Below, piece after piece: positions 30,389-62,562 of a stretch of DNA of 64,000 nucleotides. The notes below the pieces were generated by a model. The model searched no databases. It was not told where the DNA came from and saw only the letters and a program-made list of their open reading frames with translations. The DNA is from an uncultured virus (IMG/VR IMGVR_UViG_3300039136_000054) (lineage: Duplodnaviria > Heunggongvirae > Uroviricota > Caudoviricetes), in the IMG/VR virus record IMGVR_UViG_3300039136_000054. One strand, given 5' to 3'. The position numbers and the translations under genes were made by a program. Positions within the stretch are counted from its first letter, which is position 1, and each line of letters starts with the position of its first letter.

Positions 30389-30462
30389 CTCCTCCACCTG
30401 GACTCGAACCAGGAACCTATTGATTAACAGTCAACCGCTCTGCCTAATTGAGCTATAGAGGA
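30389..30462 (-). tRNA. tRNA-Asn(GTT)
   Basis: Cloverleaf TCCTCTA...GTTGA-CT-GTT-AA-TCAAT...GGTTCGAGTCC...TGGAGGAG. Confidence 0.95.
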
Positions 30463-30463
30463 A

Positions 30464-30586
30464 AGGGAATATCCCCTGCTCGTCAGCAGGGGAGGCACCA
30501 AGAGGGTTCCCACCTCTCTCCCACGCGGGTTGGATTCCGATTCTTTTTTCTCTCGGAGACGTGAGCACGGATGTATTCCAGTCCGT
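30464..30586 (-). ncRNA. Candidate structured RNA between tRNA-Ala and tRNA-Asn
   Basis: Four stems plus loop-tail complementarity GGAATA/TATTCC (see findings). Confidence 0.55.
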
Positions 30587-30588
30587 TA

Positions 30589-30661
30589 TGGAGAATAGGA
30601 GACTCGAACTCCTGACATCCTGCTTGCAAAGCAGGCGCTCTACCAGCTGAGCTAATTCCCC
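30589..30661 (-). tRNA. tRNA-Ala(TGC)
   Basis: GGGGAATTAGCTCAG...CCTGC-TT-TGC-AA-GCAGG...GTTCGAGTC...TTCTCCA. Confidence 0.95.
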
Positions 30662-31242
30662 GCAGGTACAAGTGGTTTATGATAGTTAAACCAACCTGTA
30701 ATGATGTACTTATGCTCATTTGGAGCAACTTCTCCCCTATGAGTATAGGTCCAATCACCTGGCCAGATCAAGGTTTTACCCTTTCTTGCCTGAACTGTGT
30801 GTTTCTGATGATAGAACTCGGTTCCACCACCTTCTTCCACATGATTAAGATAAGTCATCCAAACTAGATGCCTATCATTATATGGATGAATTGCATTACA
30901 ACGTTCTGTATGCCAGTTGTAAAAACCTTCACCTGGTTTATACCACTGGATATTGAATCCCTCGACTAATCCCCAAGGACCGTATTCGTTACAATAAGGA
31001 AACTTGCGAACATACTCGTCAGTACAGTCTCTCAACTGTTCGACATAATTTGCTATAACAGGAAGGTTTTCCCATTCCGAGTTAAACATGGTAAGATCAG
31101 TAGATTTCTTACCTTCGTCAGGACCACCATATGTAATGCCAGGACAACGATGTATTTTAGCAAACCTAGAGTTGTGAAAGAAATCAATGATTTCATCACA
31201 AATAGAGATGTCTCTGATGTAAGTTTCTAAAGTAAAATCCAT
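30652..31242 (-). CDS. 2OG-Fe(II) oxygenase
   Basis: YNWHTE...LVWMTYLN..EGGGTEF...WPGDWTYTHRG...KYIITGW. Confidence 0.85.
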   Translation of the reverse strand: MDFTLETYIRDISICDEIIDFFHNSRFAKIHRCPGITYGGPDEGKKSTDLTMFNSEWENLPVIANYVEQLRDCTDEYVRKFPYCNEYGPWGLVEGFNIQWYKPGEGFYNWHTERCNAIHPYNDRHLVWMTYLNHVEEGGGTEFYHQKHTVQARKGKTLIWPGDWTYTHRGEVAPNEHKYIITGWFNYHKPLVPAGN

Positions 31243-31253
31243 GTTATCCTGAA

Positions 31254-31335
31254 TGTCGGTGAGAGGACTTGAACCTCCACGTCATAAGACACTAGAACCT
31301 AAACCTAGCGCGTCTACCGATTCCGCCACACCGAC
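31254..31335 (-). tRNA. tRNA-Leu(TAG)
   Basis: GTCGGTGTGGCGGAATCGGTAGACGC...CTAGG-TT-TAG-GT-TCTAG, long variable arm, GGTTCAAGTCC. Confidence 0.95.
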
Positions 31336-31384
31336 GAAAAGGGGGCACTGCTTCTATACGCAGATCTTTTGTACTCCCCCAAAG

Positions 31385-31458
31385 AGCCACATGTCGGACT
31401 TGAACCGACGACCTACGGTTTACAAAACCGTTGCTCTATCCAGCTGAGCTAAAGTGGC
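31385..31458 (-). tRNA. tRNA-Thr(TGT)
   Basis: GCCACTTTAGCTCAG...ACGGT-TT-TGT-AA-ACCGT...GGTTCAAGTCC. Confidence 0.95.
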
Positions 31459-31991
31459 ATCTTGGTAAATTCAAACTCCCCAAAGCGTCCGCCCCAGACT
31501 TGTTCTGTAGTTCCTACAAGGAATCCACGATCAACCACATTATAAAAGTCTACGCCAAGAGTTGCCTCATTTCTGACATAGGTCATTTGATCTGCCTTGT
31601 AGGGAACCAGACACTCACAACCGTCGATAGCACCATGAAATTGGTTTTTATCTGGGTCGTAAGTCATAATTGTATCACACTTTGCCTTGTGTGTCAACCC
31701 CTTGTCGTATTTGATTTGATCTAAATTTAAAGCACCCAAATAACGCCATTTCTCAAAGTCATAATTAAGGACTCTAATCTGCCCGTTAGGGTCTTCAACG
31801 GCTTCTACAATAAACTGCCTATATGGCGCATGTAGTTTGTAATTGTACGCCTGCTCACCATAAAACATAGAATCCGTGCCAGGGACTTTATGATGAGTTA
31901 GGCGCACCATAGCGAACCTAGAGGGGTTGGAAAATGCCTGAACTTTGTTCTCCCACGTTCCCTCAAACCATTCTATAAATTTATCAATCAT
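31449..31991 (-). CDS. cpeT: CpeT/CpcT-like phycobiliprotein lyase
   Basis: FEGTWENKVQAFSNP...FYGEQAYNY..APYRQ...VDRGF...QVWG...FEF; start reassigned to MIDKFIEW (31991). Confidence 0.85.
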   Translation of the reverse strand: MIDKFIEWFEGTWENKVQAFSNPSRFAMVRLTHHKVPGTDSMFYGEQAYNYKLHAPYRQFIVEAVEDPNGQIRVLNYDFEKWRYLGALNLDQIKYDKGLTHKAKCDTIMTYDPDKNQFHGAIDGCECLVPYKADQMTYVRNEATLGVDFYNVVDRGFLVGTTEQVWGGRFGEFEFTKMPL

Positions 31992-32250
31992 CTTTAGGTA
32001 ATAGCTCTGGATTGTCAACAGTGAGTTCAAACATACATGGATGACATTCCTCCGCCATGAGATATGAAGACCATTTATAGAGTTCTTCATCATCCCAGTC
32101 TCGTCCTTCCAACGCTTCTGTTTGAATCGCTGGATGATCTTGGACAATCAGCGGAAGTTCGTCAAAGGTATATGGTATACCTTGAATGAAATACATCCGC
32201 ACTACGTTTCCCATGTAGAAACAATATGCTTGGGTTAGTGTGTATTCCAT
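31984..32250 (-). CDS. Hypothetical protein
   Basis: 88-aa ORF downstream of a TAAATA late-promoter-like motif. Confidence 0.7.
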   Translation of the reverse strand: MEYTLTQAYCFYMGNVVRMYFIQGIPYTFDELPLIVQDHPAIQTEALEGRDWDDEELYKWSSYLMAEECHPCMFELTVDNPELLPKDD

Positions 32251-32283
32251 AACATTTCCACTACATTTTATTTAGTAGCGGAA

Positions 32284-32368
32284 TAGGGCAAGCGAGACTT
32301 GAACTCGCACGAACTTTACGTTCAACAGATTTTAAGTCTGGTGTGTCTACCGATTCCACCACTGCCCC
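32284..32368 (-). tRNA. tRNA-Leu(TAA)
   Basis: GGGGCAGTGGTGGAATCGGTAGACAC...CCAGA-CT-TAA-AA-TCTG, long variable arm, GTTCAAGTC. Confidence 0.93.
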
Positions 32369-53956: not shown

Positions 53957-53984
53957 AAAAAAAGAGAGGTAACTTGACCTCCCT
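53957..53984 (-). terminator. Intrinsic terminator ending riboswitch/DUF4278 transcript
   Basis: GGGAGGT-CAAGTT-ACCTCTC-T7. Confidence 0.65.
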
Positions 53985-54004
53985 TCACACAAACGTATTG
54001 AGTT

Positions 54005-54163
54005 TTATTGCTTCACGTTCCAGCTGGACTTGCCTCGCGATTTTAGATAAACCATCTTGGCATATGATACACCACGATAAGTCAAAAATCTAAAGACTTT
54101 ATCTGGATCGTGTTTGGCAGGGTCATAGTCTGGAAGATCATATTCAAGTCTGATCTTCAGCAT
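54005..54163 (-). CDS. 52-aa protein with DUF4278-like TYRGVSY motif (not in ORF track)
   Basis: MLKIRLEYDLPDYDPAKHDPDKVFRFLTYRGVSYAKMVYLKSRGKSSWNVKQ; G-rich SD. Confidence 0.6.
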   Translation of the reverse strand: MLKIRLEYDLPDYDPAKHDPDKVFRFLTYRGVSYAKMVYLKSRGKSSWNVKQ

Positions 54164-54171
54164 CTCTCCCC

Positions 54172-54267
54172 CTACAGTTTTTGCAGGAGTAGGATCTCAC
54201 CGTAAAGTAATGCGATGAATGCTGCACAACCTAGGGATGTTACTCCAACTAATTGTAGTGCTTGCAT
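54172..54267 (-). CDS. 31-aa hydrophobic peptide (not in ORF track)
   Basis: MQALQLVGVTSLGCAAFIALLYGEILLLQKL. Confidence 0.55.
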   Translation of the reverse strand: MQALQLVGVTSLGCAAFIALLYGEILLLQKL

Positions 54268-54272
54268 GACGA

Positions 54273-54440
54273 TCACTTAACGTAGGTGCGACCACGATAG
54301 CAGAATGTACCATGAGCTTCTTTGCTTTCTACGCAACGCTGATCATACTCGACACCACGATATGCGGTAGCGGTGATCTGTGCATCGTGCAGTGCAGCTG
54401 CCTTCTGGATCTGCTTCTTGATGAGAGTGAGGGTGTTCAT
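54273..54440 (-). CDS. DUF4278 family protein
   Basis: AYRGVEY and FCYRGRTY motifs; AGGAG SD before MNTLTLIK. Confidence 0.8.
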   Translation of the reverse strand: MNTLTLIKKQIQKAAALHDAQITATAYRGVEYDQRCVESKEAHGTFCYRGRTYVK

Positions 54441-54473
54441 TGTAGGTCTCCTAAAAGAATGGGATTGTCGCCC

Positions 54474-54658
54474 CGTTCCTTCAGTCGTTTGCGCCCCAAA
54501 CATCGAAACACTCTGGTACATAGTCCTTAACGGTATCTACCAGTTCTATTCTAACCTCTGACTCCAGGTGCTTTTGCTTTTGGATCCGAAGGATTAAAGC
54601 ATCGGCATCTGGACATGCCATCGATGAATACAAAAGTAATTCAAACATGGGGTGAACG
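54474..54658 (-). ncRNA. Glutamine riboswitch-like aptamer 2 (glnA/Downstream-peptide class) with ORF in P2 loop
   Basis: CGTTCACCCCA...TGGGGCGCAAACGACTGAAGGAACG; P1 CGTTC/GAACG; upstream of DUF4278. Confidence 0.7.
54481..54648 (-). CDS. 55-aa two-Cys protein nested in aptamer 2 (not in ORF track)
   Basis: MFELLLYSSMACPDADALILRIQKQKHLESEVRIELVDTVKDYVPECFDVWGAND. Confidence 0.65.
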   Translation of the reverse strand: MFELLLYSSMACPDADALILRIQKQKHLESEVRIELVDTVKDYVPECFDVWGAND

Positions 54659-54661
54659 CTC

Positions 54662-54894
54662 CGTTCCGCGACTTACTTGCGTCCTATGTATACAACCCGT
54701 CGCATTGACCTTCCACCTTTGTCTTGAGATATCCAATAATATTCATCTTCGATCGAAGATCAAGATGAGGATCTAATTGAATCTCCACTCGACGTTGGAG
54801 GAACCTTTCACACGACATGTGCCACCCGTAGGGGTTGCCGTCATCATGATGGGCAAGGGTCAATGCCAGCAGGATGCTGAACATAAGATGAACG
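54662..54894 (-). ncRNA. Glutamine riboswitch-like aptamer 1 with ORF in P2 loop
   Basis: CGTTCATCTTATGT...ACATAGGACGCAAGTAAGTCGCGGAACG; P1 CGTTC/GAACG, P2 TCTTATGT/ACATAGGA. Confidence 0.65.
54684..54884 (-). CDS. 66-aa two-Cys protein with hydrophobic N-terminus, nested in aptamer 1
   Basis: MFSILLALTLA...MSCERFL...VEGQCDGLYT. Confidence 0.7.
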   Translation of the reverse strand: MFSILLALTLAHHDDGNPYGWHMSCERFLQRRVEIQLDPHLDLRSKMNIIGYLKTKVEGQCDGLYT

Positions 54895-54902
54895 ATTGCT
54901 AT

Positions 54903-54948
54903 AGTATAGCATTACTATATATCTTATGTCAACTGTAACATCCGCTAC
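54903..54948 (-). promoter_or_regulatory. Sigma70 promoter with adjacent NtcA box
   Basis: GTA-N8-TAC (54935-54948) next to TTGACA (54927-54932), N18, TATACT (54903-54908). Confidence 0.7.
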
Positions 54949-54953
54949 ATTTA

Positions 54954-55217
54954 TTATTTCTTCTCTTTTGGTGCGTTAGGATCCACCCACAGCTTGGGAT
55001 TTGCTCTGCCTTCAGTCTGTACCATTGTAACAAAGTCTTTACGATACATGTCCCAGTAGTGATCGAAGATGTCTACTCTCTTACTGGCAGTCACGATATC
55101 AAACTTGGTCATACCATCTTGCAAATACTCTACCATGTATGCAGTGTATGGTAGAGAACGATCTTGACAAAGTGTGGGGTCACAATCTTTGTGGATGTAT
55201 TTAATTCCTTTCCCCAT
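54954..55217 (-). CDS. Hypothetical protein
   Basis: MGKGIKYIHKDCDP...; start reassigned to abut upstream stop. Confidence 0.7.
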   Translation of the reverse strand: MGKGIKYIHKDCDPTLCQDRSLPYTAYMVEYLQDGMTKFDIVTASKRVDIFDHYWDMYRKDFVTMVQTEGRANPKLWVDPNAPKEKK

Positions 55218-62273: not shown

Positions 62274-62345
62274 AGCGGATGATCGGAATCGAACCGACGA
62301 CATCTAACTTGGAAGGATAGCGTTCTACCGCTGAACTACATCCGC
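62274..62345 (-). tRNA. tRNA-Gly(TCC)
   Basis: GCGGATGTAGTTCAGCGGTAGAAC..CTATC-CT-TCC-AA-GTTAG..GGTTCGATTCC..ATCCGCT. Confidence 0.95.
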
Positions 62346-62349
62346 AGGG

Positions 62350-62562
62350 TGGGAGAGCGTTACTTCTCCCTAGGCTCGCCACTTGTTCTTTCACTGGAAA
62401 CAAGAAACCAGGCGGCAACAATCACCCGCACCACTTGCTTTTGAGGAGAAGCAAGAAACCCGAGGGGTCTGGGACCCATCCCGACCAGGGCGCTTTTAGC
62501 GTCGTCCCGAGACGTGGGTCATAATGACTCCACCAGGGTAGGTTTAGAGTCTATCCAAGACT
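62350..62562 (-). ncRNA. manA-like structured RNA with tandem pseudoknot units
   Basis: Repeated units ending TGGTG/TGGTC/TGGTG/TGGCG; CTTGCTT/AAGCAAG and CTTGTT/AACAAG loop pairings; adjacent to tRNA; family name from memory. Confidence 0.65.

Follow-up and report, generated by a model that had tools for sequence, protein, structure and literature searches.

Two genes nested in the P2 loops of a predicted interlocked glutamine-riboswitch element in a cyanophage mRNA leader

In a 64,000-nucleotide (nt) stretch of DNA from an uncultured virus (IMG/VR record IMGVR_UViG_3300039136_000054; "the window" hereafter means this whole stretch), the minus strand at 54894..54474 keeps every conserved core nucleotide of the cyanophage glnA-type riboswitch. 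We propose, as a reading that we hold to be fairly probable, that this region folds into an interlocked double aptamer under glutamine control, in which two translated genes are nested; glutamine binding, the partners of the P1 strands, and the direction of regulation are inferred.

Layout of the element

The first-pass annotation, made from the letters of the window alone, had placed here two glutamine-riboswitch-like units, each enclosing a whole protein gene in the loop of its P2 helix. Direct reading of the minus strand bears out this layout and its coordinates, including the end of the second open reading frame (ORF2) in W-G-A-N-D-stop. The parts, named according to the fold that we favor, are as follows.

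54889..54894, minus: CGUUCA, predicted outer P1 5′ strand and junction A, placed by the Rfam alignment of the compact relative L111; invariant
54881..54888, minus: predicted outer P2 5′ strand UCUUAUGU (DNA TCTTATGT), which holds the ORF1 start codon (54884-54882)
54684..54884, minus: ORF1, a two-cysteine microprotein of 66 amino acids (phrog_6471) in the outer P2 loop, stop codon TAG
54858..54866, minus: GCAUUGACC, 5′ arm of a long-range helix in ORF1 that extends P2 as a rod
54702..54710, minus: GGUCAAUGC, 3′ arm of that helix
54682..54689, minus: predicted outer P2 3′ strand ACAUAGGA (DNA ACATAGGA), which holds the ORF1 stop codon UAG (54686-54684)
54674..54681, minus: outer J2/3 CGCAAGUA (Rfam consensus CGGAAGUA)
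54669..54673, minus: P3 5′ strand AGUCG
54654..54666, minus: hairpin GAACG-GAG-CGUUC, putative P1 of the inner, circularly permuted core; predicted in every fold; invariant
54658-54653, minus: CGTTCA of the inner unit
54648..54652, minus: inner P2 5′ strand CCCCA, whose A is the A of the ORF2 AUG
54481..54648, minus: ORF2, a two-cysteine microprotein of 55 amino acids (phrog_504), paralogue of ORF1
54494..54498, minus: inner P2 3′ strand UGGGG; C-G here in place of the U-A of most relatives
54488..54493, minus: inner J2/3 CGCAAA
54483..54487, minus: P3 3′ strand CGACU
54474..54482, minus: J3/1 GAAG plus GAACG (predicted outer P1 3′ strand); the ORF2 stop codon UGA is at 54483-54481

Between the two genes, the DNA string CGCAAGTA-AGTCG-CGGAACG (54681-54662, minus strand) is followed by GAG (54661-54659). 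P2 starts directly after CGUUCA and is closed before CG(G/C)A, with a gene as its loop instead of about 4 nt, and the last six codons of ORF2 are at the same time the inner P2 3′ strand, J2/3, the P3 3′ strand, and the start of J3/1. The CGTTCA hexamer by itself is not significant (32 occurrences in the window versus 25.2 expected). What makes the element significant is its comparison with relatives.

Compact relatives and the identity of the cores

The region matches 409 phage records. Eleven of the 12 records that were fetched share its layout, and the twelfth, Syn30, has a compact first hairpin. At least 120 IMG/VR contigs contain an exact copy of one 29-nt junction, and both compact and ORF-bearing forms are among them. 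With four further scans aimed at variants, the total came to 223 junctions, of which 210 are complete and 170 are unique elements. A compact first hairpin combined with ORF2 is found in 103 of the 170, ORF1 with ORF2 in 63, two compact hairpins in 2, and ORF1 with a compact second hairpin in 2; these class frequencies are biased by search patterns that fixed parts of the core. Between the middle GAACG and CGUUC, 159 of the 170 elements have a linker of 3 nt, and the other 11 have one of 4 nt. Genome contigs scanned with a 15-nt linker motif, which is too unspecific to address host genomes, gave no locus with the full junction (0 of 120).

The first-pass annotation had anticipated that covariance-model scans would miss the element, and they do: the whole window has no match to a glutamine family at the Rfam gathering scores (35 bits for glnA, RF01739; 33 bits for Glutamine-II, RF01704), and positions 54300-55000 have none even at E ≤ 10. 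No compact glutamine element was found elsewhere in the 64,000 nt. Given this lack of a match, membership in the riboswitch family rests on relatives. The relative L111, which has two compact hairpins, reproduces the core nucleotides of the window exactly around short P2 stems, and it matches RF01739 with 46.4 bits (E = 7.5e−8). Rfam aligns it as a single full-length glnA RNA, CGUUCA-P2-CGCAAGUA-AGU[41 nt]ACU-GAAGGAACG, in which all but one of the RF01739 consensus-capital positions are kept. Judged by its core, L111 is the natural equivalent of the element with the ORF interiors deleted, and, because an identical core passes RF01739, we attribute the failure of the window in Rfam to the inserts.

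Single units score lower than the double element. Unit 1 of L111 alone reaches 28.9 bits versus 46.4 bits for the whole, and the compact first units of Syn30 and four other loci have glnA and Glutamine-II as their top Rfam matches at 23 to 29 bits. In Syn30, where the plain hairpin CGTTCA-TCCC-TTCG-GGGA-CGCAAGTAAGTCGCGGAACG stands in place of ORF1, the two best matches are Glutamine-II (26.4 bits) and glnA (25.8 bits), both full length and below threshold. RF01704 scores of the units lie between 18.6 and 28.1 bits, all below 33; the best belongs to unit 2 of L111, on which the second RF01704 hairpin (with its loop GGAACG/CGUUC pseudoknot) aligns with several non-pairs. J2/3 CGCAAGUA differs from the consensus CGGAAGUA by one change (C for G), and J3/1 GAAG matches. 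The 2010 glnA alignment, which holds compact S-PM2 and P-SSM2 units with CGCAAGUA and CGCAA..GAAGGAACG cores, shows the CGC variant of J2/3 in phage members too. These comparisons argue that the cores are of the glutamine-riboswitch type.

Covariation in P3 and the interlocked topology

Directly after the first CGCAAGUA, AGUCG is complementary to the CGACU that precedes the last GAAGGAACG, 186 nt away in the window. Among the 170 unique elements, this P3 helix reads AGUCG/CGACU in 119, AAUCG/CGAUU in 17, AGUCG/CGGCU in 12, AGUCG/CGAUU, GGUCG/CGAUU, and GAUCG/CGAUU in 7 each, and AGUCG/CGACC in 1. The covarying pair is G-C in 119, A-U in 24, and G-U in 14 elements, and A-C in none. In a reciprocal scan for A at the second position of the P3 5′ strand, U was opposite in 35 of the 35 loci with the partner in view; two loci were cut off. 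Unguided RNAalifold predicted P3, the GAACG-GAG-CGUUC hairpin, and the helix closing ORF2. An energy fold of the compact L111 also shows the middle hairpin, but its z score is −0.77, and we do not use it as support.

Taken together, the covariation of P3 and the single-hit Rfam alignment of L111 point to two cores, one of the glnA type on the outside and a permuted one within its P3. On the simplest reading, which is probable, the outer core is a three-way junction of the glnA type, and its P3 surrounds a second junction that is circularly permuted. In this topology, the first CGUUC would most likely pair with the last GAACG, the middle GAACG-GAG-CGUUC would be a hairpin, and the two cores would share P3. 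The first-pass annotation had described tandem aptamers. Its riboswitch-type cores stand, as the score of L111 indicates; the arrangement of the two units side by side is disfavored, since AGUCG and CGACU covary across them.

Conserved and covarying helices around the genes

Base pairs in the P2 helices were counted from the invariant flanks, and partners exchanged between elements served as the control (500 shuffles). In the helix closing ORF1 (P2-1), every one of the 65 elements is paired at positions 1 to 3, and position 3 is C-G in 37, U-A in 21, and U-G in 7. In the helix closing ORF2 (P2-2), positions 1 to 4 are paired in 166, 166, 166, and 165 of 166 elements, with covariation at three of them; position 6 is paired in 73 of 166. 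The mean lengths of uninterrupted stems are greater than those with shuffled partners (5.38 versus 4.11 and 5.55 versus 4.57), and 0 of 500 shuffles reach the observed values. Covariation of P2 across phages, which the first-pass annotation had named as a check, is thus seen in both helices.

The identity of the ORF1 stop codon covaries with the bases before the ORF1 start codon. Bases 3 and 4 of the P2-1 5′ strand face the third and second bases of the stop codon, and in the 42 elements with GA directly after the stop, TAA is accompanied by the 5′ strand TCTTA (10 of 10), TGA by TCTCA in 5 and TCTTA in 1, and TAG by TCC.. in 24 and TCTTA in 2. Inside ORF1, the 9-base-pair long-range helix (54866-54858/54710-54702) is paired in 80 to 87% of cells and has changes on both sides at 8 of its 9 pairs (e.g., G-C 27 / C-G 13 at one of them), some of them non-synonymous double changes. 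In the 63 relatives with both ORFs, 91.8% of the cells of the named structure as a whole are paired, versus 25 to 44% when partners are slid by 1 to 3 columns; 16 pairs have changes on both sides, and 0 of 500 shuffles reach the covariation score. The MAFFT alignment is gappy in upper P2-1 and understates pairing with bulges at positions 4 to 8, for which the anchored counts were used instead. No conserved structure was found in the interior of ORF2.

The nested reading frames evolve as genes

ORF2 is open in all 166 elements that carry it and encodes 49 to 68 amino acids. Its ATG lies 3 to 5 nt past CGUUCA in 165 of 166 elements, and the ORF1 start lies at the same distance in 58 of 65. The ORF2 stop codon falls inside CGAC-UGA/UAA-AGGAACG in 158 of 166 elements (UGA in 129, UAA in 29); in the other 8, a TAG is located elsewhere. 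Counted from the first ATG, ORF1 has at least 61 codons for amino acids in 59 of 65 elements. Among the six in which it is shorter are L043 and four loci with a duplicated leader (L152, L164, L168, and L171), where a second ATG follows. With the helix-overlapping stretches excluded, the ratio of non-synonymous to synonymous substitution rates is 0.14 to 0.19 for ORF1 and 0.23 to 0.26 for ORF2. In both genes, the third codon position is the most variable, and the other two frames have no such signal.

Each of the two families (phrog_6471 and phrog_504) has two invariant cysteines, and a comparison of the families in hhalign gave a probability of 96.1% (E = 3.3e−9) with the invariant cysteines aligned. 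The relatedness of the two proteins, noticed in the first-pass annotation, is thereby confirmed. By their substitution patterns and profile similarity, ORF1 and ORF2 are real genes and paralogues. AlphaFold models of both have a helical hairpin after a hydrophobic N terminus (predicted local distance difference test score above 90 in the core); Foldseek found no match to the ORF1 model in the PDB below E = 2.7, and a Pfam search returned no family for ORF1 or ORF2, nor for ORF4, the last gene of the unit. Given that the closing helices are kept and covary while the ORFs evolve as proteins, each P2 loop encloses a whole protein gene, as had been claimed for the window.

Several smaller observations concern the end of ORF2. 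In phages S-CAM1 and S-CAM3, ORF2 has about 31 extra nt, and its stop codon lies 15 nt before the P2 3′ strand (locus L001, 655-825 and 835-1059). The coding sequence annotated as "gp197" in the S-CAM1 record starts inside the 3′ core of the aptamer, and this start is probably mis-called. J3/1 begins with either G or A, both of which keep the ORF2 stop codon, so that one change satisfies the stop codon, the aptamer junction, and a candidate downstream helix (described below) together.

Replacement of the genes by compact hairpins

On a tree of the neighboring DNA, the presence and absence of ORF1 are scattered, with at least 23 changes over 128 rows versus 36 to 41 in five label shuffles; this is a FastTree tree of a short alignment, in which recombination is possible. 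Relatives from two metatranscriptome runs (X2 and X11) carry TCCGTC-loop-GACGGA or a 4-nt CGAA loop in the place of ORF2 (window 54493-54653). These forms are natural compact second hairpins.

Four loci (L152, L164, L168, and L171) start with CGTTCA-TCTTATG-TGTAA-CATAAG, after which TTCATCTTATG is repeated before ORF1; L190 is similar, with CGTTCA-TCTTATATG-TAA-CATAA followed by CCTTATG. The four loci consist of a compact hairpin made from the start and stop flanks of ORF1 and then a second copy of the leader. The duplicated-leader loci look like the footprint of ORF loss or duplication. In another phage lineage (L222-L225), a fully compact double element with canonical CGGAAGTA lies directly after a tRNA cluster. 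Its linker is GAA, and its P3 is AGUCG/CGACC, which ends in A-C.

The transcription unit and a candidate expression platform

The element stands at the head of a putative transcription unit with the following further features.

54903..54932, minus: sigma-70-type promoter TTGACA-18 nt-TATACT, 11 of 12 matches, with TG before the −10 hexamer
54448..54456, minus: UUUUAG-GAG, candidate partner of CUGAAG (54484-54479), overlapping the ORF3 Shine-Dalgarno sequence AGGAG
54273..54440, minus: ORF3, 55 amino acids, DUF4278-like (IF17-like), phrog_545, presumed regulated gene
54172-54267, minus: strongly hydrophobic 31-amino-acid ORF (MQALQLVGVTSLGCAAFIALLYGEILLLQKL) between ORF3 and ORF4; the ORF list gives a 34-amino-acid GTG ORF
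54005..54163, minus: ORF4, 52 amino acids, YRGV motif, phrog_6192, last gene of the unit
53961..53986, minus: terminator-like hairpin and T run, closing the unit

The −10 hexamer ends 8 nt upstream of CGTTCA (54894), and related loci have a −10-like TATAAT or TATACT at the same distance. Given this spacing, the transcript is expected to begin at the aptamer or within a few bases of it. Metatranscriptome contigs (Logan) from four studies include the element, which places the sequence in RNA libraries; contigs of four metatranscriptome runs gave no cover upstream of 54914, which we do not count as evidence for the transcript start. The 31-amino-acid ORF could encode a small membrane peptide.

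The first-pass annotation had associated such elements with a downstream DUF4278 gene, and ORF3 agrees with this: it matches DUF4278 (PF14105) with 21.4 bits (E = 3.3e−4), below the Pfam gathering score of 25.3. Twenty-eight of 30 ORF3 homologues match DUF4278 as their sole family, at 16.9 to 25.0 bits, all below the cut-off. The hexamer CUGAAG, which comprises the end of P3 and J3/1, may pair with the UUUUAG-GAG tract beside the ORF3 Shine-Dalgarno sequence; a partner hexamer was located in 159 of the 170 elements. Where J3/1 starts with G, the opposite base is C in 96 elements, U in 34, and A in 1. All 28 elements with A in this place have U opposite; they share their downstream sequence, so that this covariation may be a single-lineage event.

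For the 473-nt leader, the minimum free energy fold (−157 kcal/mol, z = −3.83) contains the middle hairpin, both P2 helices, and a further hairpin in which UGAAGGAAC is paired with the U-rich tract before the ORF3 Shine-Dalgarno sequence. In the same fold, GUUCAU of the first CGUUCAU (54888-54893) is paired with its complement AUGAAC at the ORF3 start (54435-54440), and ORF3 starts with ATGAAC in most related loci. This pairing could be a second way to hide the ORF3 start, or it could be due to chance.

Proposed mechanism

In the mechanism that we propose, an early sigma-70-type promoter would drive an mRNA of about 0.95 kb, the first 420 nt of which would form the interlocked double aptamer. 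The outer core would consist of P1 (first CGUUC with last GAACG), P2 (UCUUAUGU/ACAUAGGA), J2/3 CGCAAGUA, P3 (AGUCG/CGACU), and J3/1 GAAG, and the permuted inner core in the P3 loop of the hairpin GAACG-GAG-CGUUC as P1, CCCCA/UGGGG as P2, and CGCAAA as J2/3. Each P2 loop would be a translated gene for one of the paralogous two-cysteine helical microproteins, with the ORF1 start and stop codons on opposite strands of one helix and the ORF2 start codon at the upper end of its P2. If a 30S subunit bound to one of the two nested AUG codons, its footprint would take in the neighboring CGUUCA together with the 5′ strand of P2, and a ribosome ending ORF2 would unwind P2-2, J2/3, P3, and J3/1. Because a ribosome that initiates on ORF1 or ORF2 or terminates on ORF2 would have to melt P1, P2, and P3, folding of the aptamer and translation of the nested genes would be mutually exclusive.

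Glutamine would stabilize the fold and thereby reduce initiation on ORF1 and ORF2. The glutamine-bound fold would also withdraw J3/1 and the P1 3′ strand from the alternative helix beside the ORF3 Shine-Dalgarno sequence, and ORF3, the DUF4278, IF17-like gene, would be switched on while the nested start codons are hidden (off). This direction is chosen by analogy with the gifB leader, whose aptamer is required for the expression of IF17 according to Klaehn et al. (PMC6212724); they propose that glutamine, once bound, causes an inhibitory duplex at the ribosome-binding site to melt. Reciprocal control, in which glutamine hides the nested starts and ribosomes disrupt the aptamer, had been suggested in the first-pass annotation and fits the geometry of the element. 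More tentatively, and with some doubt, we suggest that the fold is built around its cistrons: ribosome traffic would be a second input beside glutamine, the bound state would shut off the microproteins and open the IF17-like gene, translation would prevent sensing, and the P2 loops would be a recurrent landing site for paralogous microprotein genes. If this is true, a single phage mRNA computes on the nitrogen status and the translational capacity of the infected cell.

Alternative explanations

Several observations weigh against an interlocked, glutamine-controlled aptamer. Double changes in P3 occur at one pair only, and one lineage has the terminal A-C. The P1 strands, each present twice, show no variation in the 63 rows other than slips of the alignment, and covariation therefore cannot tell whether the first CGUUC pairs with the last or with the nearer GAACG. 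At position 4 of P2-1, only 40 of 65 elements have a pair, and at the start codon 40 to 49 of 65 do; P2-2 has only 4 to 5 base pairs to close a loop of about 143 nt, a thermodynamically weak closure unless tertiary contacts stabilize it. The platform helix of the window contains two G-U pairs and covers only two Shine-Dalgarno bases, to which the common downstream sequence of the 28 A/U cases is to be added. The metatranscriptome contigs tell the presence of the sequence only, as distinct from transcript start, strand, level, or translation, the patterns behind the class frequencies were fixed in part, and the window itself fails in Rfam even at the permissive cut-off.

It is conceivable, though in our view unlikely, that the units are two independent aptamers side by side, each closing its own P1 and sensing glutamine separately. 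They do resemble single phage units (CGCAAGUA..CGGAACG in P-SSM2 and CGCAA..GAAGGAACG in S-PM2), each gives weak full-length Rfam matches (23 to 29 bits), and RNAalifold on unit 2 alone closes a P1 of its own. However, neither unit has its own P3, and the covarying AGUCG/CGACU would have to be a pseudoknot across two closed aptamers. The nested alignment exceeds the Rfam threshold, which neither unit alone reaches, and a linker of 3 to 4 nt in 170 of 170 elements is what a hairpin loop would have. About as unlikely is a relic or re-used RNA, in which the ORF-bearing aptamer no longer senses glutamine and its helices serve translational coupling of cistron ends, mRNA stability, or processing. 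Such a loss of function would agree with the Rfam result for the window, with short P2 helices that close very large loops, and with a core that is partly coding (WDAND-stop in ORF2), which could explain some of its conservation; the literature searched shows no ligand or expression experiment on any ORF-bearing form, which counts on the same side and against the interlocked sensor. Yet the 29-nt junction, which is non-coding, does not differ between compact and ORF-bearing forms in at least 120 contigs, all RF01739 consensus-capital positions but one are kept, the P2 bases and the ORF1 rod helix covary specifically in ORF-bearing forms, and a DUF4278-like gene lies downstream, as it does with cellular glutamine riboswitches.

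The nested ORFs might also be passengers, that is, translated microprotein genes that survive in insert-tolerant P2 loops and have no regulatory link to the switch. The scattered presence of ORF1 on the 128-row tree, the variability of canonical P2 loops, and the remnant hairpins made from ORF1 flanks at some loci are in line with this. We nevertheless consider it improbable, given that the starts 3 to 5 nt past CGUUCA (165 of 166 for ORF2, 58 of 65 for ORF1) leave no room for an independent ribosome-binding site and that ORF2 runs through core nucleotides to a stop in J3/1 in 158 of 166 elements. Because ORF2 reads through the core and both starts abut CGUUCA, a ribosome and the fold would be unable to avoid each other, as judged from the size of the ribosome footprint.

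Relationship to known RNAs

Compact glnA RNAs in cyanophages are already known; the gene-bearing P2 layout is one of which we found no description. The element shares with glnA RNA (RF01739), as represented by the Synechocystis gifB/IF17 leader (PMC6212724), the core CGUUCA-P2-CG(G/C)AAGUA-P3-GAAGGAACG, the position (predicted for the window) at the mRNA 5′ end, and an encoded protein that is DUF4278 or, in the window, DUF4278-like. It differs from glnA RNA in that its P2 holds a 201-nt gene and its P3 holds a second core that carries a 168-nt gene. With the Glutamine-II/Downstream-peptide motif (RF01704, PMC2864571), it has in common the CGUUCA-hairpin-CGCA...GGAACG arrangement, the marine Synechococcus/Prochlorococcus setting, and a position upstream of short DUF4278-type ORFs; the ORFs described for that motif sit downstream of it, whereas those of the window are inside.

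Cyanophage S-CREM1 has a glnA match of 99 nt and 44 bits (PMC9964418, Table 4), which is how long a compact double core of the L111 kind should be. The compact cyanophage glnA RNAs of S-PM2, P-SSM2, and S-CREM1 come from the same phage group and have the same core variants, and none has a gene in any loop. Eleven typical ORF-start strings are absent from the 2010 glnA and Downstream-peptide alignments; Syn9 has both ORFs, yet it is absent from the 2010 glnA alignment, which has wide gap columns in P2 and P3. In the portions of the literature covered by our search (including PMC9964418, PMC9004378, PMC12379486, and PMC9602691), no gene inside a glutamine aptamer is described, and an earlier notice is possible.

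The element invites comparison with two other kinds of RNA. In group I and group II introns, tolerant peripheral loops house ORFs for homing endonucleases or maturases, with presence/absence polymorphism; these RNAs are self-splicing and mobile, and the ORF promotes their mobility. Unlike introns, the RNA of the window is a predicted ligand sensor in an mRNA leader, and its ORF products have no known link to mobility. The tandem glycine riboswitch has two homologous cores for one ligand, which lie side by side, make tertiary contacts, and have no genes inside. In contrast to it, the window has one core nested in a helix of the other, with genes inside.

Riboswitch aptamers are usually treated as compact non-coding modules of about 50 to 200 nt upstream of their targets, and search tools assume as much. 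The sensor proposed here appears to tolerate or exploit coding inserts of 150 to 200 nt in two helices, and the same nucleotides serve as aptamer core and codons. If the fold binds glutamine, it would be a natural case of ligand sensing and translation competing on one RNA and would give cyanophages a means of adjusting a regulator of host glutamine synthetase that resembles IF17. It would then also follow that covariance-model scans under-count riboswitches with large inserts, with most of the 170 elements missed or half-detected. Direct tests are possible in cultured phages such as Syn9, S-CAM1, and Syn30, in which either ORF1 or a tetraloop is naturally present.

Genomic surroundings

The window belongs to a T4-like cyanomyovirus, and the records closest to it in the element region are isolates of Synechococcus phage S-CAM1 (about 81% identity). 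Besides the element, it contains a wcaG RNA and six tRNAs.

62368-62463, minus: wcaG RNA (Rfam, 80.9 bits), with a tRNA (62274-62345) directly downstream
30389-32368: five further tRNAs

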